64,000 nt of DNA from a virus (lineage: Duplodnaviria > Caudoviricetes), in IMG/VR virus record IMGVR_UViG_3300027914_001163, positions 127,434 to 191,433 of that record; one strand, given 5' to 3'. The notes beneath the pieces are model-generated. The model did no database searches, had not been told where the DNA came from, and saw only the letters and a program-made list of their open reading frames with translations. Made by a program: the position numbers and the translations under genes. Every line of letters begins with the position of its first letter. Positions within the stretch are counted from its first letter, which is position 1. This document shows positions 786 through 31,342 of the stretch, piece after piece.

Positions 786-973
786 AAATAGATTTCAGAG
801 AAGGAATGAAGTGTCTCTCGTGCGGTAAACAGAATCACTTCGGAACAATTCATTTTGGAACATACGTCACGCTTGCCAATTACTGTTGTATCTGTGGCTT
901 CGCTGCTCAACTGGCCATTCCAGAAAGAGGATACTCGATTGAATATAGGGCGGTGAAAGATGATGAAGGTTAG
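782..973 (+). CDS. Small zinc-ribbon-like hypothetical protein
   Basis: CLSC...CCIC motifs; ATGA overlap with the upstream stop. Confidence 0.55.
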   Translation: MKIDFREGMKCLSCGKQNHFGTIHFGTYVTLANYCCICGFAAQLAIPERGYSIEYRAVKDDEG

Positions 974-1329
974 AACTCTTTGAAGCGCAACTGATCATTG
1001 TCGTTGGGTATTCGAATATGCCATCCCATGTCGTAATGATTCTCAATAAAAATATAATCCATGTTTTTAAAATCTTTTCTGTACTCTTCTATGATAGGAG
1101 TAAGTTTCTCAGCCAGACCTCGTAACTGAGATTTTGCCATTCTAATCAGCATACCGCCATAGTTCTTCGCCAGGAATTCATCCGTGTAATCTTTAAATGA
1201 AATTCCCTCTGCCTTGAGAACTTTTTGAATGTCTTTATATATGACTATGGGCGTGTGTAATTCAAACGTTTGAATAGTGTTATTCTTTGATTGCTGTACG
1301 ACTGCTTCAAGATAGTTATTGAAACTCAT
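970..1329 (-). CDS. Putative internal head protein with CTS-like leader (MSFNNYLE/A)
   Basis: Leader shared with neighbours; last gene of a tightly packed minus-strand array. Confidence 0.65.
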   Translation of the reverse strand: MSFNNYLEAVVQQSKNNTIQTFELHTPIVIYKDIQKVLKAEGISFKDYTDEFLAKNYGGMLIRMAKSQLRGLAEKLTPIIEEYRKDFKNMDYIFIENHYDMGWHIRIPNDNDQLRFKEF

Positions 1330-1618
1330 TGTAATAATCCTTCACGGTAATCATTGGATCGTATGTGAACAACCCATCTTTGATATAATAGAGTGATGAC
1401 GGAGAGGCTTTGAATACAATAATGTTTCCCTGGTACTTCCCAAGATAGTGCATCTCTCCGTGTATGTCCTTTCCGCCGTATGCTTTGATAATTTCAGCAG
1501 CTTTTGTGACAATCTTATTATCCAGGAAAAGATTTTTCATATGATACGCAAAATACTTATGCGATGGTTCAGGACGTTCTTTCTGCATGGTCTCTATGTA
1601 ATAGTTTAATGTTTTCAT
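1316..1618 (-). CDS. Putative internal head protein (MKTLNYYIE/T), AVH-family domain variant
   Basis: Leader, plus the family pattern IIKAYGGKDI...IVFKASPSSL...DYY. Confidence 0.65.
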   Translation of the reverse strand: MKTLNYYIETMQKERPEPSHKYFAYHMKNLFLDNKIVTKAAEIIKAYGGKDIHGEMHYLGKYQGNIIVFKASPSSLYYIKDGLFTYDPMITVKDYYNEFQ

Positions 1619-1995
1619 TAGAAGTCGTTGTAATCTGGATTATAAAAATTTCTAAATCGTATATACGGTTTTAGTCCTGGATAATCATAATCCAGTTCGC
1701 TTTGTAAAACATTGTATATCTTTTCTCGTATAGTTTCGAGTTTGCTTTTTTGAGATTTGAATGTATACTTTATTGAAGCATAATTCTTAACAGAACTTTG
1801 CCATTGGGTATTCTCAAGTGTTACGCCTGTTGATTCTATTGCCTTTTTAATATCACGATTTATTCTTTGGACATCTTCTTGGTTATTCTTTTTAGAAAGT
1901 CCTATGATTCCAAAGTTTACAATGCAGAACCATTTATCTATTCGTTCTGTTGGAGCCTGGTGTACGGCCTCAAGATAGTCGGTAAAGGTTTTCAT
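1618..1995 (-). CDS. Putative internal head protein, AVH family (MKTFTDYLE/AVHQAP)
   Basis: Leader followed by AVHxxP; stop/start overlaps with neighbours. Confidence 0.7.
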   Translation of the reverse strand: MKTFTDYLEAVHQAPTERIDKWFCIVNFGIIGLSKKNNQEDVQRINRDIKKAIESTGVTLENTQWQSSVKNYASIKYTFKSQKSKLETIREKIYNVLQSELDYDYPGLKPYIRFRNFYNPDYNDF

Positions 1996-2399
1996 TCTTC
2001 GATTCCCTTTCTTACTGTTTCGCCTAATTCATTTTTTTGTTTTTTAAAATTCCACTCTTCTTGCGGTTTATCTCCCCAAGCCAACACTTTGTAAAGATGA
2101 TTATGATCCAATCTATCTTGAAATCTAACTTCCTTTCCTTGTACTTTATCAATCCTTAAATAATCTTGAAGTTCTTTTAGGGTTTTAATAAGTTTATTTT
2201 GAGATATTTTAATATCCAACAATGATGAAGTTTTAGTCCATTGCCTTTTTCGAATAATAACTCCATTGTTTTCTATGATTTTGATTATTTCTGAATCTGG
2301 TTCTTGAGGATGATTAAATATTAAAACTTCAACAATATATGATTGTGAACGTTCAGGTGTTTGGTGTACGGCCTCAAGATAGTCATTAAAGGTTTTCAT
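1992..2399 (-). CDS. Putative internal head protein, AVH family (MKTFNDYLE/AVHQTP)
   Basis: Start moved to the ATG at 2399, which gives the family leader. Confidence 0.7.
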   Translation of the reverse strand: MKTFNDYLEAVHQTPERSQSYIVEVLIFNHPQEPDSEIIKIIENNGVIIRKRQWTKTSSLLDIKISQNKLIKTLKELQDYLRIDKVQGKEVRFQDRLDHNHLYKVLAWGDKPQEEWNFKKQKNELGETVRKGIEE

Positions 2400-2438
2400 G
2401 CATTGTAACATTCCAATTGTTATCGTGCGACTTTTGTG

Positions 2439-2819
2439 TTATCGTACCGTATCGATTCCCGGTGTCACGTTCTTATGTGTATAATAATTAACGATCTGAA
2501 TAAAGAACTTGCTCTTGAAAGGAATTATATTACGGTCATCATTCGCAAGTTTGGTATAGATGTCATTGATCGAAGACTCCGGTGCTTTAAATGTTACCGT
2601 CTTCATTTCTCTCTTCTGCGGATCATTCTTCGAGATTACCAACTCCAGGCGTACATCCTTTCCACCGGCTTCCTCAATGATTGCTTTGAACAATGGAAAG
2701 TCTTTGACATAATTGTTGTCATAGTTGCGTTTCCCTCCCAAGTACACACGATTCGGAATGAACCATTTCTCGGCCTTGGCGGGAGTTGTATGGACAGCCT
2801 CAAGGAAGTGTTTCAACAT
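2439..2819 (-). CDS. Putative internal head protein, AVH family (MLKHFLE/AVHTTP)
   Basis: Leader, plus IIEEAGGKDV...TFKAPESSI...NYY. Confidence 0.7.
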   Translation of the reverse strand: MLKHFLEAVHTTPAKAEKWFIPNRVYLGGKRNYDNNYVKDFPLFKAIIEEAGGKDVRLELVISKNDPQKREMKTVTFKAPESSINDIYTKLANDDRNIIPFKSKFFIQIVNYYTHKNVTPGIDTVR

Positions 2820-2820
2820 A

Positions 2821-4533
2821 TTAATCGTACCATGCTTCTATATTTACCGGACGATCAAGAAAAGAAGTAAGATAAATTCGAATATCTTCAATCTTGTCCT
2901 TCGGCAGTTTGATCTTGATTACCGGCTCCAGATAGGTTGAATGTAAAGTCGTGCTCGGAAAGGCATCGTCCGTATTGATATGATAATCAGCTTTTAAATG
3001 TTCGAGCACTTCCTCCAGGTCTTTATCACATTTTTCCTGGGCGTATTGATACCATTGCTCGTCCATCTTAATAAATGTTCTGCGCCATTTAATCTCATAC
3101 ATCTCCAATCGTGAAGGTGTTGCGTGGACTGCTTCGAGAAAACCTTTTTTCTTTAGTTCTCTGGTACGGTTAAACCAAGTAAGCAATTGAGTTTGGTCAG
3201 TGTAATAATTTCTTATCACCATATCAATATCTGGAATGCCCAATAACTTTTCGATTTTCTTGCCAACCAATATTCCAATACGCTCTGGATTATCTTGATA
3301 TTGCTTTGATGGACTCGTTTTAAACAACACCACCAAATAATCTTTCATATGTTCATAGTCATAATCAATGACCTTGACGTTGTTCTGTTCCAACGTTTTA
3401 ATTATTGTTTCGGTTATCTTCTTTCTTTTTTTCGCATCAGGTTCATGCCAGTGAGTGTAATAGAGATTCGCTTTCTCAGGCGCAGGAACAGAATGAACCG
3501 CTTCATTGTATCGTTTATCCTGTTGTTCCTTCAGTTGTTTCTTCTTATGATAATCGTAGTATTCCTGGACTGCGTGAACGTTGACGTGTATCTTAAACGA
3601 GTTAATGGTAAATGAATAGAATGCTTTCTCCACGGCGGCAGTAATATCTTTCACCTTCTGTTCAGGAGCCTTAAACGATGTTCTCCCGACTTCTTTCCAT
3701 AGACCCCCAATCCTCTCGGTACTTTCTTCTGTTTGAATATCTTTAGCATCTTGGCGTTTCAATATGAACTCCAGGCGTTCCTTGACTCGTTTATTGCTTT
3801 CTCTACCCATTGTTTCAAATTGAATCATCCACTTCTTTATAGACCCCGGTGCTGAGTGAACTGCTTCATGTATGGGGATTTCTTTGATGAGTTTTGGATT
3901 TTTGAATATTCCATTCTCGTGATACAGAGATACAAGCCTCATCTTATATCCAAACTTCTTATACAACAATTCTTCCAACTCTATGATCTTCTCTTTCGGC
4001 ATTTTCAATATGGCATAGTCATAGGTTTTCTTTGGCTCCGAGAAAGAACGCTCATCCTCGAAACGTTTAACCTCGACGTTCTTACAATAATCGATTGTCT
4101 TCAGATAATTAACGACAGACTCCGGACCTATACCGCTGCCGTACCAATACTCCACATAGAAGTTTTCCAGTTTGTTGACAACCGGATGTACTGCTTCATT
4201 GATTGGAATATCGGACTCTTTCATCTTGTGAAATGCGCCAGGTCCATAAATGTCTTCCAAGGCCATGTGTGTATCGCCAAATCTTTTGTTGAGTTCTTCT
4301 TCGATTTCTTTTATCTTTGTTTCAGGGACTCGCAACACAACCAGGTCAAATCGGTACTGCGGTTTATTCGGCACGGTAAATCTTCTCACCCGAACATCCT
4401 TGCAGTCTTTTATATTCTTGAGTTCTTTGGCTATATCATACAGGTCAAGCGCAACAGGATAATTGGTAACGATCACTCGTTTCCATACTTTATCTGAAGC
4501 CTGATGTACCGCTTCGAGAAAATTATTCAGCAT
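2821..4533 (-). CDS. Five-unit AVH-family polyprotein, putative internal head protein
   Basis: Start at ATG 4533 with a GGAG RBS (MLNNFLE/AVH). Internal INEAVH, IHEAVH, YNEAVH and FLEAVH occur every ~110-125 aa. Confidence 0.75.
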   Translation of the reverse strand: MLNNFLEAVHQASDKVWKRVIVTNYPVALDLYDIAKELKNIKDCKDVRVRRFTVPNKPQYRFDLVVLRVPETKIKEIEEELNKRFGDTHMALEDIYGPGAFHKMKESDIPINEAVHPVVNKLENFYVEYWYGSGIGPESVVNYLKTIDYCKNVEVKRFEDERSFSEPKKTYDYAILKMPKEKIIELEELLYKKFGYKMRLVSLYHENGIFKNPKLIKEIPIHEAVHSAPGSIKKWMIQFETMGRESNKRVKERLEFILKRQDAKDIQTEESTERIGGLWKEVGRTSFKAPEQKVKDITAAVEKAFYSFTINSFKIHVNVHAVQEYYDYHKKKQLKEQQDKRYNEAVHSVPAPEKANLYYTHWHEPDAKKRKKITETIIKTLEQNNVKVIDYDYEHMKDYLVVLFKTSPSKQYQDNPERIGILVGKKIEKLLGIPDIDMVIRNYYTDQTQLLTWFNRTRELKKKGFLEAVHATPSRLEMYEIKWRRTFIKMDEQWYQYAQEKCDKDLEEVLEHLKADYHINTDDAFPSTTLHSTYLEPVIKIKLPKDKIEDIRIYLTSFLDRPVNIEAWYD

Positions 4534-4930
4534 CTTTCTTCTTCTCCGCATACCATGTTTTATTTCTCTCGTAAACCAGTTCATTGGTATAATAGTCACA
4601 GATGCCAAACCAAGTTCGCATCTCTTTAATTACTTCCATGTTAGCCAGGTAATCCCACTTCTTTCCCAAGTTGATCGTGTTCCTGATATTAACTTCAATT
4701 TGTTGAAAGATTGAAGGATGACCATTAAATACAATGATCACACTATTCTTGCCGCTATTCGCCTTTACTGAACGTGCCTCTTCTTGAAGATTGGTTCCTC
4801 CGGCCTTCTTGATGGCTCTCTTCATAATGCCGACGATAGCATTCATATGAATATTATCATAACTGAAAAGATAATATCGCTTCTTGGTAGAGGGCGTGTT
4901 ATGAATTGCTTCGAGATACACGTTAAGCAT
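4523..4930 (-). CDS. Putative internal head protein, AVH family (MLNVYLE/AIHNTP)
   Basis: Leader, plus AIKKAGG...IVFNGHPSIF...DYY. Confidence 0.7.
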   Translation of the reverse strand: MLNVYLEAIHNTPSTKKRYYLFSYDNIHMNAIVGIMKRAIKKAGGTNLQEEARSVKANSGKNSVIIVFNGHPSIFQQIEVNIRNTINLGKKWDYLANMEVIKEMRTWFGICDYYTNELVYERNKTWYAEKKKDAE

Positions 4931-5279
4931 CTTTCTCTCCTGATTTTTCTTTTACTGATGAATGACGGCTGAATACCCAATCTTGCTTGTTGTATTTTCT
5001 ATATGCTTGAAATATTACTCTTATTGGAAGAAATGTTAATAATGCTTCTCTAACTCTTTCTAAAGAAGGAGGATCAATTTTAAATGAATATATTGCTCCT
5101 CCTCTCATACTCCAACCTACATAACTTGCATTATCCTTACCGCAGATATTTTCAAGGACTTCAACAATTTGATCATCTGTTATGTTTCCTATATGATCGG
5201 TATCTATCCAGAGTTCATACTGCTCGACAGGTTTGGGCGTTGTGTGTACCGCTTCGAGATAATGTTTAAATGTTTTCAT
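4923..5279 (-). CDS. Putative internal head protein, AVH family (MKTFKHYLE/AVHTTP)
   Basis: Leader motif. Confidence 0.7.
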   Translation of the reverse strand: MKTFKHYLEAVHTTPKPVEQYELWIDTDHIGNITDDQIVEVLENICGKDNASYVGWSMRGGAIYSFKIDPPSLERVREALLTFLPIRVIFQAYRKYNKQDWVFSRHSSVKEKSGEKDA

Positions 5280-5726
5280 TTATTTTCTTAATGCCTTACG
5301 ATATTCTTTTTGATATTTGAATATTTGAGTCCAATTAACTTTATCTTTCATTTCAATAATAAAATTTTTAGACATTTGAACATTTTTTGATACGACATTC
5401 CAATCAACAAAGTCTTTAAAATCTCGAATGAAGTCTTCAGGTAAAGTATAATAGGTGCAAAAGGTAGTCCAATCCATATTGTAAACATCATATGATCTAA
5501 AAGGAATGATTTCGGGTATAGTATCTTCCGAGGATTTAAAAAATATAATTCTGCCATTATCATATGTTTTAAGAACTTTCCCACCGCTTTTACCAAGAAG
5601 TATCAGTGCTTTGTTTTTCCAATAGATGTCCTCGTTTTTATTGTTGCTACTTGATACCATAATAAACTTTTTTGTTTTTTCTGGAACCTGGTGAACTGCC
5701 TCAAGATAATGTTTAAATGTTTTCAT
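5280..5726 (-). CDS. AVH-family protein with C-terminal tryptophan-repeat module
   Basis: MKTFKHYLE/AVHQVP; repeats LPEDFIRDFKDFVDW / MSKNFIIEMKDKVNW. Confidence 0.7.
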   Translation of the reverse strand: MKTFKHYLEAVHQVPEKTKKFIMVSSSNNKNEDIYWKNKALILLGKSGGKVLKTYDNGRIIFFKSSEDTIPEIIPFRSYDVYNMDWTTFCTYYTLPEDFIRDFKDFVDWNVVSKNVQMSKNFIIEMKDKVNWTQIFKYQKEYRKALRK

Positions 5727-6192
5727 TGTTCTTCCGTGCCAGGTCTTTAATCTTCTTATACGTTTCAGGCTTCATCTTGAGTTTGTACCGGATCATAACG
5801 TCTTCAGCAAACTGTCCCATATCAAAAAACAATTGTGAGACTTTTCCTTTAGGTTCAGGAATCAGTTGTTCACCGTTGTAGTAATCGAATATCAAGGTAT
5901 AATCCATTTCAGGCACGGTCGTAATTGCATTAAACAAATTATACAATATCGACCTGGGACATTTGATGATATACACAAAGAACCGTCCGTCACCAATTGA
6001 ATATTCTTTTAATCTTCCAGAGCCGTAATGATCAGTAACTTCATACCTGAGAACTTCGGCCTTGTATTCATCCAACTTATGCTTAACCTGTGGAATACCG
6101 GCAGCATCATGACACACACAGGAGATGACATACTTCTCCATTCTCTCTGGAGCCTGGTGTACGGCCTCAAGATAATAATCAAATGTTTTCAT
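5713..6192 (-). CDS. Putative internal head protein, AVH family (MKTFDYYLE/AVHQAP)
   Basis: Leader motif; IIKCPRSIL...FDYY. Confidence 0.7.
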   Translation of the reverse strand: MKTFDYYLEAVHQAPERMEKYVISCVCHDAAGIPQVKHKLDEYKAEVLRYEVTDHYGSGRLKEYSIGDGRFFVYIIKCPRSILYNLFNAITTVPEMDYTLIFDYYNGEQLIPEPKGKVSQLFFDMGQFAEDVMIRYKLKMKPETYKKIKDLARKNNENI

Positions 6193-6671
6193 TAGTCAGT
6201 ATCCAAATGATTATATTTATATTTAAACGACAGGGATACGTCTTGATAGCGCAGGATGTTATGCCAATCTACTTTATCTTTAAACTTCAAGATAAACTTC
6301 TCAGACATCTTACTGTATTTTGAAACAGAAGACCAATCAACGAAATCTTTGAAATCTCGAATGAATGATTCCGGCAGCTCCCAATCACTACAGAACTGTT
6401 TCCAATCCATTGTATATATATCATCGCAATCACCAAAAAGATAATCTTCAGGGGCGAGATTGGAAGGACATTTAAAAAATATAATCGTTCCATTATCTGC
6501 ATCTGCGCTTTTATATATCTTTAGTATTTCACTATTGGGAATTGATTTGATTTCTTGGAGAACTGAATCTCTTGTCTCTTCTTGCAAATCAAACGCTATG
6601 GTAATATATTTTTTAAATTTATCTGCTTGTACCTTGTGGACTGCTTCGAGATAATAATTAAACGTTCGCAT
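6192..6671 (-). CDS. AVH-family protein with tryptophan-repeat module, paralog of 5280-5726
   Basis: Start ATG 6671 gives MRTFNYYLE/AVH; repeats LPESFIRDFKDFVDW / MSEKFILKFKDKVDW. Confidence 0.7.
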   Translation of the reverse strand: MRTFNYYLEAVHKVQADKFKKYITIAFDLQEETRDSVLQEIKSIPNSEILKIYKSADADNGTIIFFKCPSNLAPEDYLFGDCDDIYTMDWKQFCSDWELPESFIRDFKDFVDWSSVSKYSKMSEKFILKFKDKVDWHNILRYQDVSLSFKYKYNHLDTD

Positions 6672-7446
6672 TATATATTTCTCCATTATCATACAAACGA
6701 TATACCGTATTATGAGTTCTGTCGTTTACTATATCAATAAATACGCCAGAAGAACGTTGCTCTTTGTCTTTTATTATTTGTTTAAGGAGATAATAAACTT
6801 TTTTATCAGACGTTTTGAGTCGTATTCTTGTTTGCATTCCTTGTTGTGATTCCTCTGTTATTTCAATATTGGAATGTTTTATGATTTGAATAATATGAGA
6901 GATAATATTTTCCAAATGATACTTAGCGACTACAGAACTATTGAAATAAACTTTTAAAAGATATTCTCTTTTCTGTTCCGGCTCAGTATGCACGGCCTCC
7001 AGGAAGATGTCAGGAATCTCTTCATCGGCCACCAGTTTCTTTGTATGAACCAATGTCACCGGCACTGCGCTGATAATGTCCGAAGGTTCAACTGTTCCAA
7101 CCTTTTTATACCATACGCCCTTGTTGCCAGCTTGAGACAATGGATCGTTTGTATCAACGACCCATTTGCCAGTCTTCTTGAATTTGATTATTGAAATCTT
7201 TCCGCTGCCGACTTCCTGGTTAAGACTCCAATCCATTCGAGCTGCCCACTGGATTGCATCTCGTTGGTGTTCGAATGCGTAAATCTCTCCCTTGCCGTAG
7301 CGTGTGAAATCTCCCTTAACCCAATTACTTGTCTGCATCATGACCAAGCCCTTCTTCTTGATCTTTGGAACATTGGAAGTTTTGGTTACATGATACAGAT
7401 ATTGTTCCTTGCCTTTAACGGCAGCTTCAAGATAATATTTAAGCAT
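6658..7446 (-). CDS. Two-unit protein: ADP-ribosyltransferase-like (Tpt1/KptA/DarT-type) domain plus AVH domain
   Basis: MLKYYLE/A leader; YLYHVT...VPKIKKKGL and GEIYAF motifs; internal IFLE/AVHTEP. Confidence 0.6.
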   Translation of the reverse strand: MLKYYLEAAVKGKEQYLYHVTKTSNVPKIKKKGLVMMQTSNWVKGDFTRYGKGEIYAFEHQRDAIQWAARMDWSLNQEVGSGKISIIKFKKTGKWVVDTNDPLSQAGNKGVWYKKVGTVEPSDIISAVPVTLVHTKKLVADEEIPDIFLEAVHTEPEQKREYLLKVYFNSSVVAKYHLENIISHIIQIIKHSNIEITEESQQGMQTRIRLKTSDKKVYYLLKQIIKDKEQRSSGVFIDIVNDRTHNTVYRLYDNGEIYNANV

Positions 7447-7944: not shown

Positions 7945-8196
7945 CTACTTCTGCAACACGATTGACTGCACATCACCCAGGCTGATCTCCGTCTCAGAAT
8001 TCTCTTGGCGTATCACTATCGCCTTCTTGCCAATCAACACCACGGACTGCGTAACCGGAATAACATCACCGGTCTTCAACACTATCGTTCCGTTCATTGA
8101 GTACGTCTTCATGCAGCTCCAGGCCATCAACGCAACTGCCACGCACACAACGACCACGGCCACCCCTCCCAACTTCAGTTTCGTTACAAACTTCAT
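7945..8196 (-). CDS. Small membrane-anchored or lipoprotein-like protein
   Basis: N-terminal hydrophobic stretch ending AWSC; GGAGG RBS. Confidence 0.55.
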   Translation of the reverse strand: MKFVTKLKLGGVAVVVVCVAVALMAWSCMKTYSMNGTIVLKTGDVIPVTQSVVLIGKKAIVIRQENSETEISLGDVQSIVLQK

Positions 8197-8677
8197 CGAA
8201 TGTTTCCTCCTTCAAATCTTTAAACATGTGAAATGATAAGTCATGATCGCCATAGTAACCGTACAATACTTCATCCACTTCGAATCCGACACTCAGGTAT
8301 AGTTTGAATGCGTGAACGTTTCGACATGCTACATTTAGAGTTATTTGTTTAAATTTTTTTTCCTGGTAATATTTCAGAACATATTCCAATACCGCACGTC
8401 CGAATCCTTGGGACCTTCGAGCCGGTTGAATGCCGAGATTGATCAAGTCTATACTGCGTTTGAATCTGTGAATGCCGTAATATGCGATGAGTTGTCTGTA
8501 CCGGTTCAGGATTACAAAGTGCGAATGTTTCTTGAGTTCGATGGTGAAAAGCCTTCTGGTATAGGTCAAATTTTCAGGAAAGGAACGTTTTTCGATTGAC
8601 AGGATTTCAGGCATGTGTTTGTATTGACACAGTTCGATAGAGTAAATTTGGCCTTTATGCAGTAGTTCTCCGATCAT
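8066..8677 (-). CDS. GNAT (RimI-like) acetyltransferase
   Basis: IEKRSF, NLGIQPARRSQGFGRAVL (acetyl-CoA motif A), LNV...NVHAFKLY...GF, GYY. Confidence 0.85.
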   Translation of the reverse strand: MIGELLHKGQIYSIELCQYKHMPEILSIEKRSFPENLTYTRRLFTIELKKHSHFVILNRYRQLIAYYGIHRFKRSIDLINLGIQPARRSQGFGRAVLEYVLKYYQEKKFKQITLNVACRNVHAFKLYLSVGFEVDEVLYGYYGDHDLSFHMFKDLKEETFDEVCNETEVGRGGRGRCVRGSCVDGLELHEDVLNERNDSVEDR

Positions 8678-13987: not shown

Positions 13988-14356
13988 CTACGTTCCCCAT
14001 TTCGTATTATAAGCCGGTTCGAAGTCCTTATAATAATCATAGAACAGAACTTTTGTCAAGAGTTCTGATTGAATTTTTTCTTTTACTTTTTTAAAAATTG
14101 TCTGATCGCTTGGGGTTTTGAATACTATTCCAGTCCAATCTCCATCTACCTCAGTTCTGAGCCTGAAGTTGAATAAGACATTTTCTATATCCTTGGAGGT
14201 AACTCTGTTCACGCCGAATTCCTTCAGGATAGATTCTATTTTATTATAATCCGTATCTGAATGTTTCTTATTAAAAAGAACGACATACGTTTTAATTCTA
14301 TTAGTGTCAGGCGTGTTATGAACTGCTTCGAGATACTTCTGAAAGTTTCCTGTCAT
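13988..14356 (-). CDS. Putative internal head protein, AVH family (MTGNFQKYLE/AVHNTP)
   Basis: Start ATG 14356; ILKEFGV...IVFKTPS...YDYY; lies directly downstream of the portal. Confidence 0.7.
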   Translation of the reverse strand: MTGNFQKYLEAVHNTPDTNRIKTYVVLFNKKHSDTDYNKIESILKEFGVNRVTSKDIENVLFNFRLRTEVDGDWTGIVFKTPSDQTIFKKVKEKIQSELLTKVLFYDYYKDFEPAYNTKWGT

Positions 14357-14457
14357 TTTCTTCCACCAACGATACCAGAATATCATACTCACGATCATCA
14401 AAACAGAAAAAATTCTTAAAGATGTCTCTCAACATTTTCTCTGATACAGTTTCTTTC

Positions 14458-16470
14458 TTAATCATTATAGGCGAAGCAATCTGAAAGACCGGTAAATTCT
14501 CCATTGAGTTCCAACTCCTCATAAGATACATGATGTTTCCTGACATATTTTGTCGTTTCTTTTTCTTCCTTTTGCATAAGAATAACTTTCTGTTGTTCTT
14601 CTACCATCTCGTTTATCATGGTTACCAGTTTATTCTTCTTCTGCAAGGCTTCACTGTAATTTTGTTTCTTGTCGATTGAGAACATTGGAACATACTCTGC
14701 CGTCTCAGGAGCCGGTCCCAGTTGTCCGGCTACGTCTGGCGGAATGGGTGTAGGTCCGGGGGCTGTGCCTTCTTCGCCTGGTGCTGGAGTTCCTGCCTCT
14801 CCTCCTGCGGGAGCCGGTGGTGCGCCTCCTCCTGCCGGTACTCCACCGCCTGGTGCGCCCTCTCCTTCTGCTGGCGGCGGTGTCATCTCTGCTAAGTCTT
14901 CTGATCCTTCTGGTCTTTCTTCTTCTGGCAACGCTTCGAAGATGTTCTTACCGGCCTGTTGGAGTTGCGCCAGTTTCAACCATTCAACTATTTCTTCATC
15001 AGAAAGTTTAAGAACATCCTGATAGATTTTGTAATCAGGAATAAAGACGGATTCAGCATTGAGAGACTTCATGTTCATTATCAAACCCCACCTTGAGGTT
15101 TCAATTTCAATGCGTTCTTTCTCGTCAATGTTGGATGGGTTATTCATCGTTAAAACAAGTTCATCGAATACACGGCTGCTGTATCCATTAAGGCGGAGTT
15201 CGATGTAGGCCAGTTTATACATTTGATATAAGAAACAACGCTGAATCCGTCTGATTTTTTTCGCAAATGGTTTTGACTTACTTGAAAGATTTGTATTTGC
15301 ATTGGCGAAAGTGTCATCATATAAATATTGTCGAGGAACACCAACACCAGGAAATATTTTATCTCGAATAAATTCAAGATCACCAACGTCACCAGGATTA
15401 TTTAACTGATCGAGAGTGGTTATGCTATGTCCTTCATCTCCGGCACGTTTTGGAATAACAATATCTTCAACTGTTCCAAAGATGTCACGTTGATAGTCAA
15501 TTTTGTTTTTACTGTATATATCGAGTTTACGTTTGTTTCTGAAATTATCCATTACCTGTTTAGCGTATTTCATTGCTGATTCACCTTGGAGTGTACCAAC
15601 ATTTATATTGAAGATACGGCGTTCGGGAGCACGAGTAATCCTGGCGATCAACAACGACTTCTCCATCATACTTATCATTTCAATCGAAGAAAGAACACTA
15701 TCGATAACGGCTTCTCCATAAATGCCATATTGCGATGATGGAATTCTAAAGTGAAGCATACGGAATGGATAGAATCGTTTATTTTCTTTCTCATATTCTG
15801 TTTGATAGTTTACGGTGTATGCAAAATATGACAATGTGTTGGTGTCTCTCATTTCAACGTCAGATACTTCAAATCCAAGAAGGTTTCCATTCTTTTCAAC
15901 ACGGAGAATAAACTGCCTGGGGAGATGAATGAGTTTAAGAATCCTTTTAAGACTTTGAGATATTACCACTTCCCAAAAGTCATCACCGTAACCGCACATG
16001 TCTTTGATAATTCCCCATGCTTTGTCGTTTATCCCAAGGCGAGAATACATCTTATCAAGCAGCTCAACAACTTCTTCCTGCGGGTGGACAACATGAAGTA
16101 TTTCGCCGTCCTGATCTTCTGTGGTGGCTTCGTCAGCATGGATATTGAGTACACCGACGATCTCAGGGTGCTTCTGCGCTTCTTGGAGACGATTGTAACG
16201 CAGTCTCCGCTCTCCAACACGTTCTTCCTGCTGATAAATATGTCCGATCAGTTCATTGACTGATACAGCCCCAAGCGCATTGATCTTGTCGTCCAGGCCG
16301 TACAACTGAAGAGGTATGTTGTCTGGCGATTGGATGAGCATATTCGCCATGCCGGAGATTTCAGAGTCAGAAGGAGAAATCTTTAACTTGCGATCAATCC
16401 GTTTCCAGAGGTACTTAATTTCCTGTGGGGTAATTTCTGTATTATTGGAAGTAATTGTTGGTTCGGCCAT
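14458..16470 (-). CDS. gp20: Portal protein (T4 gp20-like) with Pro/Gly-rich C-terminal extension
   Basis: HPEI...ADEAT, MLHFR, YGEAVI, LIARITRAPERRIFNINVG, EDIVIPKR and GVPRQYL motifs; ATG at 16470. Confidence 0.92.
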   Translation of the reverse strand: MAEPTITSNNTEITPQEIKYLWKRIDRKLKISPSDSEISGMANMLIQSPDNIPLQLYGLDDKINALGAVSVNELIGHIYQQEERVGERRLRYNRLQEAQKHPEIVGVLNIHADEATTEDQDGEILHVVHPQEEVVELLDKMYSRLGINDKAWGIIKDMCGYGDDFWEVVISQSLKRILKLIHLPRQFILRVEKNGNLLGFEVSDVEMRDTNTLSYFAYTVNYQTEYEKENKRFYPFRMLHFRIPSSQYGIYGEAVIDSVLSSIEMISMMEKSLLIARITRAPERRIFNINVGTLQGESAMKYAKQVMDNFRNKRKLDIYSKNKIDYQRDIFGTVEDIVIPKRAGDEGHSITTLDQLNNPGDVGDLEFIRDKIFPGVGVPRQYLYDDTFANANTNLSSKSKPFAKKIRRIQRCFLYQMYKLAYIELRLNGYSSRVFDELVLTMNNPSNIDEKERIEIETSRWGLIMNMKSLNAESVFIPDYKIYQDVLKLSDEEIVEWLKLAQLQQAGKNIFEALPEEERPEGSEDLAEMTPPPAEGEGAPGGGVPAGGGAPPAPAGGEAGTPAPGEEGTAPGPTPIPPDVAGQLGPAPETAEYVPMFSIDKKQNYSEALQKKNKLVTMINEMVEEQQKVILMQKEEKETTKYVRKHHVSYEELELNGEFTGLSDCFAYND

Positions 16471-16556
16471 AAATTTTCCTATTCTTTTTGGTGAAGTCGT
16501 TATAATATACAATTATATTAGATCGTTTTACAAAAAAGGACTTAAAAAAAGGCCAA

Positions 16557-16993: not shown

Positions 16994-17398
16994 ATGTCAT
17001 CAAGATTTAGGGAATATCTCGAAAAAACATACTCAGAAGAAGGCGAAGAACCAGAAGAGGGCGGAGCGAATCTTCCTGCTGTCCGTGGCGGTATGGGACG
17101 TGAAATGATGGGGAGAGCAACCGGCTTTCCTCATGAACTGCAAGTTAAACTGATGAGTGAAATGAAACATCTCCAGAGCCAACCGCATAAGTATCTCAGG
17201 ATGATGAACGACCTCATGCCAATCATGATGAAACTTCAAGGTGGTGAATTTCTCAAGCCAGCCGAAGCCGAAGAATTCCTGAATAAATATAAAGAGTTCG
17301 ACAAGGACGTAAACAATCCTCGGTACTTCAAACTGCTGAAAGAATTCTTGACTACTGGAAACTGGAACTTTGCCAAATTTAAAGGTGATGTTCGGTAA
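16994..17398 (+). CDS. Putative internal head protein (MSSRFREYLE)
   Basis: AGGAG RBS, ATG 16994, leader, then an acidic tract. Confidence 0.65.
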   Translation: MSSRFREYLEKTYSEEGEEPEEGGANLPAVRGGMGREMMGRATGFPHELQVKLMSEMKHLQSQPHKYLRMMNDLMPIMMKLQGGEFLKPAEAEEFLNKYKEFDKDVNNPRYFKLLKEFLTTGNWNFAKFKGDVR

Positions 17399-17760
17399 TG
17401 AATCTTTCTCGTTATCTCGAAGCAAAACACGCCGCAGAAAAACTTGAACGATATACCAGATACGAACTGGACATGACCAATTATTCTGCCAATTATCATC
17501 TTAATTGGAAAGAATTTATTGATCGTGATATTCAAGAAGTAATGAAATTTTTAAAAGAGAACGGCGCACTGGATGTGAAGTTTGCCATGAAAGGAAAAAT
17601 GGCTTCATCGGGAGCTGCAAACTTTATTATCGATTTTAAATCTGCGCCCTCTGTTGTGGCAAAGTTTCTTGATGTCATACGAGATAACATGCCTGGTTGG
17701 AGTGTTAACATTTATGATAAATATCAAAATGTAAACATAGTGGAGTTGCTTTCATTATGA
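17398..17760 (+). CDS. Putative internal head protein, AVH family (MNLSRYLE/AKH)
   Basis: LKENGALDV...IDFKSAPSVV...YDKY. Confidence 0.7.
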   Translation: MNLSRYLEAKHAAEKLERYTRYELDMTNYSANYHLNWKEFIDRDIQEVMKFLKENGALDVKFAMKGKMASSGAANFIIDFKSAPSVVAKFLDVIRDNMPGWSVNIYDKYQNVNIVELLSL

Positions 17761-18101
17761 GTTTAAAATATTATCTTGAGGCAGTACATAAAACTCCTGG
17801 TAGAATACGCAGATTCCTTTTGGGAATGGATAACTTAGCAAAAGGAGATCACATAAATGAAAAATTTCAAACAAAGGCTATAGAAAAAACAATTCAACTA
17901 TTAAATAGTCTTAAAGTGTTGGATGTACGGCTGACTGACCGAAGCAACCTGAAAGATATTTTTTATCCTTATTTTGGAATATCATTTCGAGCATCGATGG
18001 ACATGCTTCATAAGATAGATAAAACATTAAGATTACAAATGAATGATTGGATCACATCATACACAGACGAAGAAAATAAGCGAACTGTTTACCCTGATTA
18101 A
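17757..18101 (+). CDS. Putative internal head protein, AVH family (MSLKYYLE/AVHKTP)
   Basis: Leader motif; ISFRASMDML. Confidence 0.7.
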   Translation: MSLKYYLEAVHKTPGRIRRFLLGMDNLAKGDHINEKFQTKAIEKTIQLLNSLKVLDVRLTDRSNLKDIFYPYFGISFRASMDMLHKIDKTLRLQMNDWITSYTDEENKRTVYPD

Positions 18102-23540: not shown

Positions 23541-23850
23541 ATGAATGTATTCCAAGGGCATTACTTTGAAGCAAGTGATCATAGTAATGCCATTTTAAAA
23601 AGAAATAAAAAAATATTCTGGATCGGCGCAGTCAATTTACTCGATGGATACATTGAAGAAGTTTATACATATGAGACAGCCAAGAACGCAGATTTTCATC
23701 ATAGTTTTTACTTCAGCCAAAACGCTATAAGAAAAATTCGTGAAGAAGAATGGGGAATTTTTCTGGATCGATAATAAAAAGGTTGTCACATGGGATTTGG
23801 AAGTGACACCTGAAATAATCTCAAAAGTAAAAGAACAAATCAGCGTATGA
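23541..23850 (+). pseudogene. CTS-leader gene interrupted by an apparent 1-nt frameshift at ~23758-23762
   Basis: The ORF stops at 23774, but the +1 frame continues FWIDNKKVVTWD...QISV to a TGA overlapping the next ATG (23847-23850). Confidence 0.55.
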
Positions 23851-24566
23851 TCGGATTACAATATTATTTTGAAGCCAAGCATGATGTGCCAGAGCGTTTA
23901 GAAACCTGGAGCATACGTTCACACAATGCATATCTTTTTCATCATCAAGATCAATGGATGAAGATTCTCATGTCTTTAAGCAACGACTTTACAAATGCCG
24001 GAGCCATTGATGTACACTATGAAAAATATCAACCTGGCTCTGCAATACCAATACTTGTTTTCAAATCTCCGGTATCAATGCTCAGAAAACTTCAAACCAT
24101 ATTATTTAATCTTCTCAAAGAAACAGGATACAAACTTTATACTGATATATCATTCATCAATAAATATTCTGGTAAACCATATTATGACTATACAAATGGT
24201 TTGCATGAAGAATTTTTAGAATCAGTTCATCAAGCATCATCTGAAAAAATAAAAAGATATTTTATATATGTTGTTGGCGGTTCAGAAAAGGATGCCGATA
24301 GTTATTCACATAAATCCTGGGAAAAGAGAATCATGTTTATGAAAGGAGTTATATTGAAGCGTGGAGGTCGTGCTGTATTCTCGGAAATGGCGCACCATCA
24401 AGTTGATAATAAATCAAAAGAACAATATCATAGAGGTTTCAATACTATAATATCTTTTAAAGCCCCATATTCCGCTCTTGACACTATCAGAAAAAATATA
24501 ATTCCAAAAGAAGATTATGACCATCCCATATGGGATTATTATAGTAAGGAGTTAGTTAGAAGATGA
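23847..24566 (+). CDS. Two-unit AVH-family polyprotein
   Basis: MIGLQYYFE/AKHDVP and internal FLE/SVHQAS; both units carry FKSP/FKAP and end in (D/K)Y(Y). Confidence 0.7.
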   Translation: MIGLQYYFEAKHDVPERLETWSIRSHNAYLFHHQDQWMKILMSLSNDFTNAGAIDVHYEKYQPGSAIPILVFKSPVSMLRKLQTILFNLLKETGYKLYTDISFINKYSGKPYYDYTNGLHEEFLESVHQASSEKIKRYFIYVVGGSEKDADSYSHKSWEKRIMFMKGVILKRGGRAVFSEMAHHQVDNKSKEQYHRGFNTIISFKAPYSALDTIRKNIIPKEDYDHPIWDYYSKELVRR

Positions 24567-27704: not shown

Positions 27705-27995
27705 ATGAAACTCAAATACACAGATGAACAAATTCAGAGAGCCGCAAAAGGTTTAAAGTGGTATAAAGAAGAAGAACAGAATGAAGAGCCTGAAAAAAAG
27801 GAAAAGCACTTCAAGACGTTTACCATTGGGGATGATAAGATCGATGTTGATATACTCCACGGATTTATTTATATCAACGATGAGTTGGTTACGGCTGATA
27901 CTGATATTCCTAAGAAGGTCATAAAAATTCTTCAAGAGATCATACCGAAAATTGCCAATGGCGATGAAAAACTTGAACACAAAGAGGAAGAATAA
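27705..27995 (+). CDS. Hypothetical protein in head module
   Basis: 96-aa ORF with a TAATG overlap into the protease. Confidence 0.6.
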   Translation: MKLKYTDEQIQRAAKGLKWYKEEEQNEEPEKKEKHFKTFTIGDDKIDVDILHGFIYINDELVTADTDIPKKVIKILQEIIPKIANGDEKLEHKEEE

Positions 27996-28672
27996 TGGAC
28001 ACAATTGTTTATAGACCGTATATATCAGAGGCTTGGGTATCAGAATCGTTTGGTTACACTGAAGCCAATATCGAAATAAATGGCAAACCGTATCTTCAAA
28101 TAATCCTGGAAGGAGAATTCCAAAGAGCAAGCAAGCCTAATAAAAACAATCGTATTTATACGGAAACGCTCTTATCTCGTGAAACAGCCAAATTGCAAGA
28201 ATCGATCAGGCGCAGGAATGGTCACCCAATGGGAATGGACCATCCGATGCCCAATCCAAACGATCCTCCACAATTACAACTTCAACAAATAAAACGTATT
28301 GGTCTGGAGAACGCTTGCGCCCTTACCAAAGTGTTGGAAATGAACAATGGCGTTGTCTATGGTAAGGCGGAGGTTTTAACCGGTGACGGTGGAACAGGTG
28401 ATAAACTTGCTTCTATGGTTAGAAGGAAATTCAAACCGGCTGTATCGTCTCGTGGAGTAGGCGGCGATCCAGTACATCAAAATGGATTCATGTATGTACC
28501 GGAAAGTTATAATATGGTTTGTTACGATTTCGTAACTGACCCTTCTACGCACAATGCAATTCTTGAACAAGCCATCCAAGAAGAGGTTTATTTAATGGAA
28601 CAGGCTACCAAATACGTCCGCACTCTTTGGGATGTCATGGTCGATTTTAACAACAAACACGGAATGAAATAA
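27995..28672 (+). CDS. gp21: Prohead protease (T4 gp21-like)
   Basis: LEGEFQRA..PNKNNRIY, GMDHP (His), VSSRGVG (Ser) and YDFVTDPS motifs. Confidence 0.93.
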   Translation: MDTIVYRPYISEAWVSESFGYTEANIEINGKPYLQIILEGEFQRASKPNKNNRIYTETLLSRETAKLQESIRRRNGHPMGMDHPMPNPNDPPQLQLQQIKRIGLENACALTKVLEMNNGVVYGKAEVLTGDGGTGDKLASMVRRKFKPAVSSRGVGGDPVHQNGFMYVPESYNMVCYDFVTDPSTHNAILEQAIQEEVYLMEQATKYVRTLWDVMVDFNNKHGMK

Positions 28673-28747: not shown

Positions 28748-29707
28748 ATGGATTTTCTCAAAATATTAGAAAACGTTCAACTGAGCGAAGATCAAATCAA
28801 GGCTCTTGATAAGTTTTTTACCGAATGGGTTGATAAGAAAACCAAAGAAATCGAAACAAAATACTTGGAGGAATCCAAAGGTGAGAGTGGAATCGATCCT
28901 GAAAAATATATCCTCCGAGAAGATGCTGAAAAGGCTTTTGAAAAATACGAAGAACATTGCGAAGCTGCCTTCGAAAAGTTCGAAGAAGATTGCGAAGCTG
29001 CTTTTGAAAAATACGAAGAGGATGCTGAAGCCGCTTTCAATCTCGGCGTAGAAGACCTTCAAAAAGAATATACCGAGAACATGACGCAAGCCCTTCAGGA
29101 AGTCTACAGCGAAATTTCTGATCGTGTTAAAACTGAATTCATGGAAAGCAAGGAATACAAGACAATCGAAAAACTCAAAGAACTTGCCATTCCGCTTATT
29201 GATGACAGTTCCAACGATCTTATCGCCAAAATGAAAGCAATGAACGAAGAAAAAGAAAAAGTCGAACAAGACAACAAGAAACTCTCCAAAGAAAACGCTA
29301 TCAATGTTCTGTTGAAAGATATTCCGAAAGAATATGTCGAAACAGTTAAGAATTTTATAAGTGGTGGAAACACCGAAGAAGAAGTAATCGAACGCTTTAA
29401 CTCCATCTGTGAAGTGCTCGAAACAAAGATTAAAGGCTCTGCTGTTAAACCGGTGAACGAAGAAAAGAAACCTGACATTGGAAACAAGTTCTCCAGGAAG
29501 AAAGAAACCACACCGGCTCCAACTGCTCCAGAAACTAAGCCTATTACTGAAGAAGCCGATAAAACCGCTACTCCAGAAGAAAAACCGGCTCCTTCTGTTG
29601 GATATGAAACATTGATAAGAAAGATGGAGAAAGAAGAGAATGAGATTAATGCGTTCACTGAGAGTGAAGCATCTATCATAGATAAGATTTTTGAAAAGAA
29701 AAAATAA
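28748..29707 (+). CDS. Prohead scaffold / core protein (T4 gp22-like)
   Basis: Highly acidic coiled coil between the protease and the capsid gene. Confidence 0.75.
   Translation: MDFLKILENVQLSEDQIKALDKFFTEWVDKKTKEIETKYLEESKGESGIDPEKYILREDAEKAFEKYEEHCEAAFEKFEEDCEAAFEKYEEDAEAAFNLGVEDLQKEYTENMTQALQEVYSEISDRVKTEFMESKEYKTIEKLKELAIPLIDDSSNDLIAKMKAMNEEKEKVEQDNKKLSKENAINVLLKDIPKEYVETVKNFISGGNTEEEVIERFNSICEVLETKIKGSAVKPVNEEKKPDIGNKFSRKKETTPAPTAPETKPITEEADKTATPEEKPAPSVGYETLIRKMEKEENEINAFTESEASIIDKIFEKKK
28918..29039 (+). repeat. 33-bp (11-aa) tandem repeat, ~3.7 copies, inside the scaffold
   Basis: EDAEKAFEKYE / EHCEAAFEKFE / EDCEAAFEKYE / EDAEAAF. Confidence 0.85.
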
Positions 29708-29740: not shown

Positions 29741-31342
29741 ATGTTTTATAACGAAGCTTACGAAGAGCGTAAAAAACTCGAAGAAGCGTTGGTACAAAAA
29801 TGGCACAAAGCTCTGGAAGTGAATAACATTTCCGATGAACATACCGCCAGGACAACGGCTATCATACTTGAGAACTATCTTGAGCACCTTGAGGAAACTC
29901 CTCAACTGATAGCAGAAGACCAGATTCAAACCAGCGCATTTACCGGCGTGAACCTTGCTCTGCTCGGCCTTCTCGCTCGTGCTATCCCACAACTCATCGG
30001 TCTCGAACTCTGCGGTGTCCAGGCAATGCCGACCCCTCGTTCCCCGATCTTTACACTCCGTTGGTACAAGTCTGACCATAAAGGTGCGACCGCTGCCAAA
30101 GAAGAAATGTGGGTAAGCCCCATTCCGGCTCAGTACCCTGTTGGTATCGATCCGTACTACACATCTCAACAAATTCGCAACGAAGCATGGACGGTCAGCG
30201 GTGACGATCCAACCACTCTCGTTTGGGCGAATAAAATCAACGCAAAAGGTCTGCGTCCACTCCTGTTCACAGGAACGATGTATGTCCGTTGCTTTGATGC
30301 CTCTGGAAACGTTCTGACAGTTGTTGCTTTTGCTGGCGACCTTAACTCGAACGGAACTTTTCCTATTACCGGTACTCCTTCGGCTGCGTTCGGTGCAAAC
30401 CAGAACATGAAGCTCGAACTCAATGGAACAACCGGGAACAAACAAATCCAGGCTTATGATACCAACGGTGCAACGGCCGCATCTCTGACTGATCTTACAG
30501 TCGGCGGAACATCTGTTGCTTCTGCGATCATAGATTACGAATACAAGGCTGAAGACGAAGGAAGCATTCCTGAAATGACTTTCGAAATCACCCAAGATTA
30601 CGTCGATCTGATCCGTAGGCAATTAAGAGGTAACTATACGCTGGATAGCGCATACGACCTCAAGAAGTTGCATGGCATCGACCTGGAATCGGCTATCATG
30701 GATATGATGAAGCAAGAACTCATGGCTGAAATAAACCGTGAAATTGTAAGCGACCTCAGACTCCTTGCGGCCATTACCAAGACCCTCGACTACAACCTTC
30801 TCCCTGCCGGAAATCCAGGAGTTGCCGGACAAGTATCGGTAAACGCTAACTGGAACGATGCGCAGATCGCTCTCCTCGATGCAATCGAGAAAGTGTGCGC
30901 TGAAATCTGGATTTTGGGAAGGCGTGGATATGGTAACTTCGTGGTTGGTAACCCTTCCACTCTGTCTTTCCTTGACCGTGTTCCTGGCTTCGTCGGTTCC
31001 GGCGTTACTTATAACGGACGTGACCTGTCGTATGCTGGTTCCCTCGGTGGAAAGATAAAGTTCTACCAAGACCCACAGTACCCGAAGAACGAACTGCTGA
31101 TCGGCTACAAAGGCAATTCGGCTATAGATAGCGGATATGTGTATTGCCCATATCTTCCTATCACAGCAACGCCGACTCTGCTTGATCCGATGACTGGTAA
31201 CCCAAAGAAACTGTACTACACCAGGTACGGCAAAACTTTCCAAGATCGTGGAAACAACGGTATGCCAAAGAATCTGATCCTCATGGGCGAATATCAGTAC
31301 GCTCGTCTGACGATAGCGAACATGCCTGTTCTTTTCAGGTAA
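29741..31342 (+). CDS. gp23: Major capsid protein (T4 gp23-like)
   Basis: LVQKW, TAIILEN, GVQAMPTP, YDLKKLHGIDLE, AEINREI, GNFVV, YCPYLP and TRYG motifs. Confidence 0.96.
   Translation: MFYNEAYEERKKLEEALVQKWHKALEVNNISDEHTARTTAIILENYLEHLEETPQLIAEDQIQTSAFTGVNLALLGLLARAIPQLIGLELCGVQAMPTPRSPIFTLRWYKSDHKGATAAKEEMWVSPIPAQYPVGIDPYYTSQQIRNEAWTVSGDDPTTLVWANKINAKGLRPLLFTGTMYVRCFDASGNVLTVVAFAGDLNSNGTFPITGTPSAAFGANQNMKLELNGTTGNKQIQAYDTNGATAASLTDLTVGGTSVASAIIDYEYKAEDEGSIPEMTFEITQDYVDLIRRQLRGNYTLDSAYDLKKLHGIDLESAIMDMMKQELMAEINREIVSDLRLLAAITKTLDYNLLPAGNPGVAGQVSVNANWNDAQIALLDAIEKVCAEIWILGRRGYGNFVVGNPSTLSFLDRVPGFVGSGVTYNGRDLSYAGSLGGKIKFYQDPQYPKNELLIGYKGNSAIDSGYVYCPYLPITATPTLLDPMTGNPKKLYYTRYGKTFQDRGNNGMPKNLILMGEYQYARLTIANMPVLFR

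Follow-up and report, generated by a model that had tools for sequence, protein, structure and literature searches.

A T4-like phage gene encoding five related domains behind a single leader: a predicted capsid-targeted polyprotein

Introduction

The 64,000-nucleotide window analysed here comprises bases 127434–191433 of the 191,433-bp IMG/VR virus record IMGVR_UViG_3300027914_001163, and all positions are given in the window numbering unless another contig is named. An open reading frame (ORF) on its minus strand, 2821–4533, encodes a protein in which the motif Glu-Ala-Val-His (EAVH) follows a short N-terminal leader and then recurs at four internal places. The question raised by this locus is whether the product is a polyprotein that one leader brings into the phage head and that the head-maturation protease then divides into its units. 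The five-unit polyprotein is a real, intact gene. On the sequence evidence described below it is probably a capsid-targeted precursor, which the head protease would cut into five internal proteins of 12–15 kDa that would be packaged and later ejected.

The polyprotein gene

The ORF ends with the stop codon at 2821–2823 and encodes 570 aa, a length also given by independent gene callers. The reading frame is open over 2821–4608 (minus strand), corresponding to 595 aa from a TTG codon. The ATG at 4533 was chosen as the start, given GGAG about 11 nt upstream and the similarity of the leader MLNNFLE to MLKHFLE and MLNVYLE of two flanking genes. The computed mass of 67.8 kDa agrees with the ~67 kDa of an earlier sequence-only reading of this DNA, and the leader MLNNFLE/AVH and the internal INE/AVH, IHE/AVH, YNE/AVH and FLE/AVH named there (the slash marks the presumed cut) were all found. 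The E/A boundaries follow residues 7, 113, 223, 344 and 467. The layout is as follows (all features on the minus strand).

2821–4533: polyprotein ORF, 570 aa (ORF and gene callers)
4513–4533: N-terminal leader MLNNFLE, short family form; presumed capsid-targeting sequence, removal predicted at E7/A8 (sequence)
4195–4512: unit 1, 106 aa, pI 8.1 (boundaries; AlphaFold2 model)
4186–4203: joint 1, P3–P3' I-N-E/A-V-H, with a presumed relic Met-Lys at P10–P9 (MKESDIPINE)
3865–4194: unit 2, 110 aa, paralogue of unit 1 (31% identity, E = 2e-11)
3856–3873: joint 2, I-H-E/A-V-H
3502–3864: unit 3, 121 aa (30% identity to the product of gene 2439–2819, E = 1.6e-6)
3493–3510: joint 3, Y-N-E/A-V-H
3133–3501: unit 4, 123 aa (family profile)
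3124–3141: joint 4, F-L-E/A-V-H
2824–3132: unit 5, 103 aa, acidic, pI 5.2 (family profile)

The units (103–123 aa) are similar in size to the mature stand-alone neighbours (109–150 aa), as the sequence-only reading had stated. The predicted mature units are of 12–15 kDa and mostly basic.

The recurrence of EAVH is far beyond chance. With the amino acid composition of the genome its probability is 4.4e-6 per position, so that 0.0025 occurrences are expected in the polyprotein, and the probability of four or more is ~1.5e-12; only 0.6% of shuffled polyprotein sequences contained at least one EAVH. Within ORFs of the 191-kb genome the motif is always either in a leader, 7–9 residues after the start codon, or at a unit boundary, except for one off-frame chance match.

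Nothing but the odd architecture suggests an artefact of assembly or frameshifting, or a fusion that is decaying as a pseudogene. The identical ORF occurs on four contigs from at least three samples (JGI 3300026158, JGI 3300026181, NCBI GCA_020047475.1 and the IMG/VR record), so the polyprotein is not an assembly artefact; a fifth copy differs in one residue, and all five units still match the family profile described below. As far as sequence data can show this explanation is refuted, and we give it hardly any credence.

The shared domain

The family to which the units belong is also encoded about twenty more times in the same genome as single genes. Ten of these flank the polyprotein gene on the same strand.

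970–1329, 1316–1618, 1618–1995, 1992–2411, 2439–2819 (span 970–2819), minus strand: five single family genes lying downstream, all with leaders of their own
4523–4930, 4923–5279, 5280–5726, 5713–6192, 6192–6692 (span 4523–6692), minus strand: five single family genes lying upstream, all with leaders of their own

A hidden Markov model (HMM) was built solely from 14 stand-alone members. It yields exactly five matches in the polyprotein, starting at residues 8, 114, 224, 345 and 468, each of which is the beginning of an AVH. When the AVHxxP segment was removed from the model all five units still matched, and the ORF scored 27.0 bits compared to at most 6.7 bits in 500 shuffles. The earlier claim of five real domain units belonging to the same family as the neighbours is thus borne out. 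In the alignment the family shows the pattern AVHxxP, strand, helix, two strands ending with F-K-x-P, helix, and a strand ending with Tyr. Whether it stands alone or in a fusion, each copy follows hydrophobic-x-Glu and starts with Ala/Ser-Val-His.

The AlphaFold2 model of unit 1, built with the paralogue alignment, has a predicted local distance difference test score (pLDDT) of 81 and a beta-alpha-beta-beta-alpha-beta fold. Its ends, residues 1–8 and 102–106, are of low confidence, as expected for exposed linkers in such a model. Fold searches with this model retrieved only generic ferredoxin-like matches (DUF2179, HMA, CutA1; Foldseek E ≥ 0.07, VIA Z ≤ 7.5) and gave no lead to a function. The domain therefore appears to be a small one of the generic ferredoxin-like fold, present five times in tandem in the polyprotein.

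Two of the upstream genes, 5280–5726 and 6192–6692 (minus strand), encode products that are 42% identical (E = 2e-30) and have an extra C-terminal region with the repeated D-F-V-D-W...V-S-K. In the one that was scanned, 5280–5726, this region matches phrog_3532 (E = 9e-15, function unknown); the PHROGs matches of this gene are all to families of unknown function.

Leaders and joints

Each stand-alone gene starts with M-K-T-F-x-x-Y-L-E/A or M-L-x-x-F/Y-L-E/A, while the polyprotein has a single such leader, at the N-terminus. We tabulated 17 leaders and found four more with the family profile; in all, 21 genes share the pattern M..F/L..Y/F-L-E/A, and the bodies of their products are mostly less than 25% identical. 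T4-type phages likewise place a capsid-targeting sequence (CTS), itself conserved, on otherwise very diverse internal proteins (PMC3012670, PMC9026906). Internal joints were collected from three ORFs: the polyprotein (four joints) and two further fused ORFs with one joint each.

6658–7446, minus strand: second fused ORF, of 262 aa; after the leader MLKYYLE/AAV come a 143-aa domain unrelated to the family, the joint IFLE/AVH (6988–7005) and one family unit
23847–24566, plus strand: third fused ORF, 239 aa, among head-region genes; leader MIGLQYYFE/AKH, two family units (family HMM), joint EEFLE/SVH (24213–24230)

All 17 tabulated leaders have a hydrophobic residue (Phe/Leu) at P6, an aromatic one (Tyr/Phe) at P3, Leu at P2 and Glu at P1. 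At the six joints the hydrophobic P6 is never found (D, E, D, K, P, H) and Leu is found at P2 in only three, whereas a hydrophobic P3 (I, I, Y, F, F, F) and Glu at P1 are retained in all six. Past the boundary, Ala/Ser at P1', Val at P2' and His at P3' are also present in 6/6 joints; His occupies P3' in 13 of the 17 leaders. The initial Met-Lys-Thr is lost at the joints, save for the Met-Lys at joint 1.

In the CTS of T4, targeting depends on residues 4 and 7, and processing on residues 8 and 10, which correspond to P3 and P1 (PMC9026906). Asp at P1 of the T4 CTS prevents processing and leaves targeting intact (PMC9026906), and gp21-type enzymes cut after Glu (PMC5694885). Since P3 and P1 are retained at every joint and the hydrophobic P6 at none, the joints keep the positions relevant for gp21 and lose the address positions. 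Such a pattern is expected for sites that serve for cutting only, with one targeting signal and several release sites. We also considered neutral decay of fusion scars and rejected it, as decay would not yield retention of P3 and P1 together with loss of P6. The assignment of the joints to the hydrophobic-x-Glu protease type by the sequence-only reading thus agrees with T4 genetics, as exactly the protease-relevant positions are kept (PMC9026906). Sites of the form hydrophobic-x-Glu/small residue occur in the polyprotein at the leader, at the four joints and at one other place, 7 residues before joint 1. The substrate feature of gp21-type enzymes, such a site within an exposed segment, is therefore seen at the domain borders, with exposure judged from the ends of the unit 1 model.

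The codons of EAVH differ among the copies at silent positions. The tails of units 1 and 2 are DIPINE/AVH and EIPIHE/AVH, although the units are only 31% identical and use the same codon for 14 of their 35 identical residues. Because the tails remain alike after this divergence, at least one joint has been kept for a long time, and selection on the joints appears to act at the protein level.

Head genes and the probable destination of the products

The sequence-only reading had invoked a gp21-type protease, and one is indeed encoded in the same window, along with other head genes.

14458–16512, minus strand: gp20-type portal (Portal_T4, E = 1e-50 in the Pfam-type family search of the window proteins; context)
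27995–28672, plus strand: gp21-type prohead protease, the presumed cutting enzyme (Peptidase_S77, PF03420, E = 7e-11; T4 gp21 structure 5JBL, E = 1e-10)
28748–29707, plus strand: acidic protein rich in repeats, encoded between the genes for the protease and the capsid protein, without any family match; gp22-like scaffold by position and composition only
29741–31342, plus strand: gp23-type major capsid protein (Gp23, E = 3e-55; context)
13988–14401, 17398–17760, 17757–18101: leader-bearing family genes beside the portal gene and in the head-gene block (family HMM)

Both the gp21-type protease and the T4-type head gene set that characterize the T4-type CTS-tagged class are thus present. The catalytic triad of gp21 is His/Ser/Asp (PMC5694885). 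In the alignment with the 5JBL chain, the His of the DHP motif stands opposite an Ala of the chain, while SSRG and YDF align with SRG and VDA; we read these three motifs as carrying the putative triad residues. The capsid protein shares only ~28% identity with its counterparts in cultured T4-type phages, which makes the phage a deep-branching, uncultured T4-like one. A protease and capsid protein search of IMG/VR retrieved a single close relative, referred to below as G001 (protease 69% and capsid protein 66% identical; others at most 32%).

Candidate cut sites were also seen in the head proteins themselves. At the N-terminus of the capsid protein (29741–29920, plus strand; L011 14459–14640) LIAE/DQ(I/V)QTSAFTG is kept in both phages, and LIAE/DQ, ~58 residues into the protein, is likely the maturation cut. 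MFYNE/AYE at the very start is conserved as well. YLE/H of the capsid protein was rejected as a leader-type cut site, as G001 has NYMT at this place. In the C-terminal region of the portal (residues ~615–625) the sequence is NYSE/ALQKK here and KYLE/AKQKK in G001; this may be a site of the protease in the portal tail, although the portal of T4 is reported to be unprocessed (PMC5694885).

The leader might still be a shared N-terminal element of another kind, belonging to a cytoplasmic protein family that evolves fast (early anti-defence proteins, for example); the polyprotein would then be a tandem-domain member of that family with no place in the head. The location of the main array can be read this way, as it lies 7–13 kb from the portal gene and ~21–27 kb from the protease gene, beside a PAPS-reductase-like gene; leader-bearing members are, however, found within the head-gene block too. 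The ip genes of T4 are likewise dispersed, which counts against this explanation. The PAPS-reductase-family gene, 3–785 on the plus strand, directly adjoins the array (PF01507 on the full 290-aa product in L002).

No enrichment of the T4 late promoter TATAAATA was seen (7 copies against 3.7 expected); its sole copy in the array, 6214–6221 (minus strand), falls inside the coding sequence of gene 6192–6692. The absence of a T4 late-promoter signal favours a cytoplasmic role; sigma-70 and terminator scans were uninformative. In the same direction points the lack of homology to known virion proteins in Pfam and PHROGs. On the other hand, the leader resembles the T4 CTS in form: it has MKT, an aromatic residue at each of positions 4 and 7, and hydrophobic-x-Glu/Ala at its end. 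Moreover, G001 carries the leader M-S/N-K-F-x-x-Y-L-E/(A,S,T) on about eight genes outside this domain family, and neither a member of the family nor a polyprotein was found in it. Such behaviour is expected of a portable address peptide: G001 puts its YLE/small-residue leader on unrelated proteins in the way that T4-type phages use their CTS (PMC3012670). Taken together, these observations make a role away from the head quite unlikely. One ORF of G001 (L016 92678–93115, plus strand) starts with MSKFKEYLE/S and repeats MSKFKEYLE/A 26 residues further on; here either the leader is doubled or the start was mis-called.

Predicted cleavage at the joints

A polyprotein destined for the head could also be packaged and lose only its leader, remaining an internal protein of five domains in which E-A-V-H-x-x-P is an inter-domain or N-terminal element. 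Two features of the joints speak for such an uncut chain. Leu at P2, present in all the tabulated leaders, is less strictly kept at the joints; this could reduce the efficiency of cutting. Further, AVHxxP is conserved beyond the apparent need of the protease: the leaders of G001, whose protease is 69% identical, vary at P1'–P3', so that strict Ala-Val-His-x-x-Pro after the cut is not needed there, and a part of AVHxxP presumably has a function other than cutting. In principle such a function could explain its retention in an uncut chain as well. At the same time, P1 Glu and the hydrophobic P3, which lie outside the domain, were kept in all six joints while P6–P9 decayed; the AVH segment is unstructured in the unit 1 model; and the T4 enzyme requires little beyond P3 and P1 (PMC9026906). 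We consider a packaged but internally uncut chain unlikely, and cleavage at the joints the better account.

Along with the surplus conservation of AVHxxP and what it implies, several other results weigh against a cleaved, packaged precursor. The MKTF-form leader falls one residue short of the T4 CTS in length. AlphaFold2 applied to the full-length polyprotein without an alignment gave a pLDDT of 40, uninformative as to five independent domains. The polyprotein and eight of its nine neighbours match no Pfam or PHROGs family at E ≤ 0.01 and have no homology to the T4 internal proteins. Finally, searches for homologues of the whole polyprotein (a word-indexed set of 5.8 billion, HMMER against 1.84 billion representatives, and tblastn against 50,697 phage records) returned only the polyprotein itself; these searches found no diverged orthologue in which the joints could be compared across species.

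The leader was also used as a search pattern. At the DNA level, MKTFxxYLEAVH had no matches in IMG/VR, and the looser MKTFxxYLEA matched six contigs, once each. An over-loose pattern retrieved at least 120 stretches in a metagenome scan, all matching only once; nine of them remained after filtering and look like chance matches. Among the nine, one peptide (MRPTFQRYLEAVHLQF, or MHPTF...), of no known affiliation, accounts for seven, and at least three of these seven copies come from human-gut assemblies.

Strain variation and origin

The stand-alone genes are tightly packed, with overlapping stop and start codons, and small deletions can therefore fuse neighbours. The Met-Lys at joint 1 appears to be the relic of a former start. 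The polyprotein itself is unchanged in all strain variants, while the array around it is fluid. One variant contig (L003, 7399–7402) has a 4.5-kb deletion beginning inside gene 2439–2819. Another (L004, 1–569 and 517–4222, compared with 970–6200 of the window) has a chimeric gene that joins the leader of 1618–1995 to the body of 5713–6192, with the crossover falling within 53 nt of overlap, part of which is the leader DNA common to both; these two leaders have 27 identical bases in common.

Such a chimera raises the possibility that the junction recurs as a site of DNA recombination, by which cassettes are shuffled, and not as a peptide signal. The four internal joints, however, differ at most silent positions and contain no long identical DNA, so that the conservation is at the amino acid level. 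Shuffling would also leave the retention of P1 and P3 unexplained, and it can coexist with cleavage of the chain. As a substitute for a cleavage signal it is very improbable.

Comparison with known systems

The closest system is that of the internal proteins, CTS and gp21 of T4, and the functional class appears to fit on every testable feature, although there is no homology to the T4 internal proteins. In T4 (IPI, IPII, IPIII and Alt), as here, a short N-terminal leader (T4 MKTYQEFIAE/A; here MKTFxxYLE/A) is carried by divergent, small, mostly basic proteins of a variable locus. Homologues of gp20, gp21 and gp23 accompany both systems, and the cut after Glu with a hydrophobic P3 (PMC9026906, PMC3012670, PMC5694885) is predicted here. 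The T4 proteins are single units with one cut, whereas here five units (two in the two further ORFs) stand behind one leader and are connected by joints of the cleavage-only type; the leader has 7–9 residues instead of 10, and the new N-terminus would be strictly Ala-Val-His. The polyprotein thus seems to be a variation on the T4 internal-protein system, with the known tag and protease but several units behind one leader.

The sequence-only reading called a polyprotein strategy unusual in dsDNA phages, which is overstated in view of polyvalent proteins (PMC5512222) and of multi-site cutting by head proteases (PMC10052503). Polyvalent proteins, described by Iyer, Burroughs, Anand, de Souza and Aravind in 2017, are virion-delivered multidomain chains with proposed proteolytic release of units (PMC5512222). 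They resemble our polyprotein in combining several post-entry units in one virion-delivered chain, delivery being predicted in our case. They differ in joining 2–15 different effector domains, enzymatic ones, and in having an embedded zincin-like peptidase (MPTase). The polyprotein consists of five paralogous copies of one small, non-enzymatic-looking domain, and the presumed cutter is the head-maturation protease acting in trans at CTS-derived sites. Neither an embedded MPTase nor a MuF/portal fusion was found, the polyprotein having no Pfam domain at E ≤ 0.01; ORF 6658–7446 does join two different domains.

Several protease sites within one head protein are also known from the giant phages phiKZ, 201phi2-1 and SPN3US. 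The gp21-related prohead protease of SPN3US cuts after Glu at 14 sites in nine proteins, including at least three motifs of gp53 (PMC10052503). In contrast to the polyprotein, the additional cuts in these phages fragment long propeptides, which are cleared out of the head; the sites follow A/S/G-x-E, and no complete cargo domain is repeated in tandem. In engineered T4 fusions (Hong and Black 1993; Mullaney and Black 1996) a foreign or fused protein enters the head behind a single CTS, which the protease then takes off (PMC9026906). Those are laboratory constructs, of which the polyprotein would be a naturally occurring equivalent, equipped with several release sites. In a literature search we found no paper on natural tandem CTS-site polyproteins.

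Proposed maturation

We propose that the N-terminal leader binds the scaffold core, so that the 68-kDa chain would be built into the prohead. The activated protease would take off the leader and cut after Glu113, Glu223, Glu344 and Glu467, releasing five proteins of 12–15 kDa, mostly basic, in equal numbers and with the new N-terminus Ala-Val-His. These would stay with the DNA until ejection into the host. In this manner one address would load five cargo units per scaffold site. The earlier picture of one signal loading five effectors freed inside the head is therefore supported in part: the five units, the protease and the joint pattern agree with it, whereas the term effector finds no lead to a function, only a generic ferredoxin-like fold. 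By analogy with T4 IPI, a reasonable guess is that the units act against host defence.

Cutting would have one more chemical consequence. An amino-terminal Cu(II)- and Ni(II)-binding (ATCUN) motif has the form NH2-Xaa-Xaa-His, with a free alpha-amine, His as the third residue and a second residue other than Pro. The motif is reviewed in PMC7701195. N-termini of this form arise only if the E/A bonds are cut, namely Ala-Val-His in the five units and Ser-Val-His in the second unit of ORF 23847–24566. It is conceivable, if doubtful, that cleavage arms every unit and most stand-alone members with an ATCUN N-terminus that binds Cu(II)/Ni(II) and is possibly redox-active. If so, His would be kept at P3', although the G001 protease tolerates varied P1'–P3', because the ATCUN N-terminus is needed, and the polyprotein would yield five metal-binding tags for each chain loaded.

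Should the joints indeed be cut, T4-type phages would possess a natural means of bringing in more cargo with each capsid-targeting signal and of setting the proportions in which several proteins are ejected. This would be a dsDNA-phage counterpart of the RNA-virus polyprotein, run by the head-maturation protease. The occurrence of the same domain in single genes and in fused units of one genome provides an internal control that separates targeting (P6) from cutting (P3, P1) residues. Packaged proteins of uncultured T4-like phages could be sought with the leader and joint pattern as a sequence rule, and the layout of the polyprotein could serve as a natural design for multi-protein delivery by T4-based vectors.

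Other observations

The 143-aa domain of the second fused ORF (6997–7425, minus strand) has no Pfam match and no PDB sequence match. Its neighbours in a protein atlas carry the PARP, Tox-ART-HYD1 and Arr-ms families, with scores of 0.93–0.94. As a weak lead, this domain may be a packaged ADP-ribosyltransferase-like enzyme, as is Alt in T4. Upstream of this ORF on the same strand, the ORF 8066–8677 (minus strand, 203 aa) has a Q-G-F-G-R-A motif and by eye looks like a GNAT acetyltransferase.

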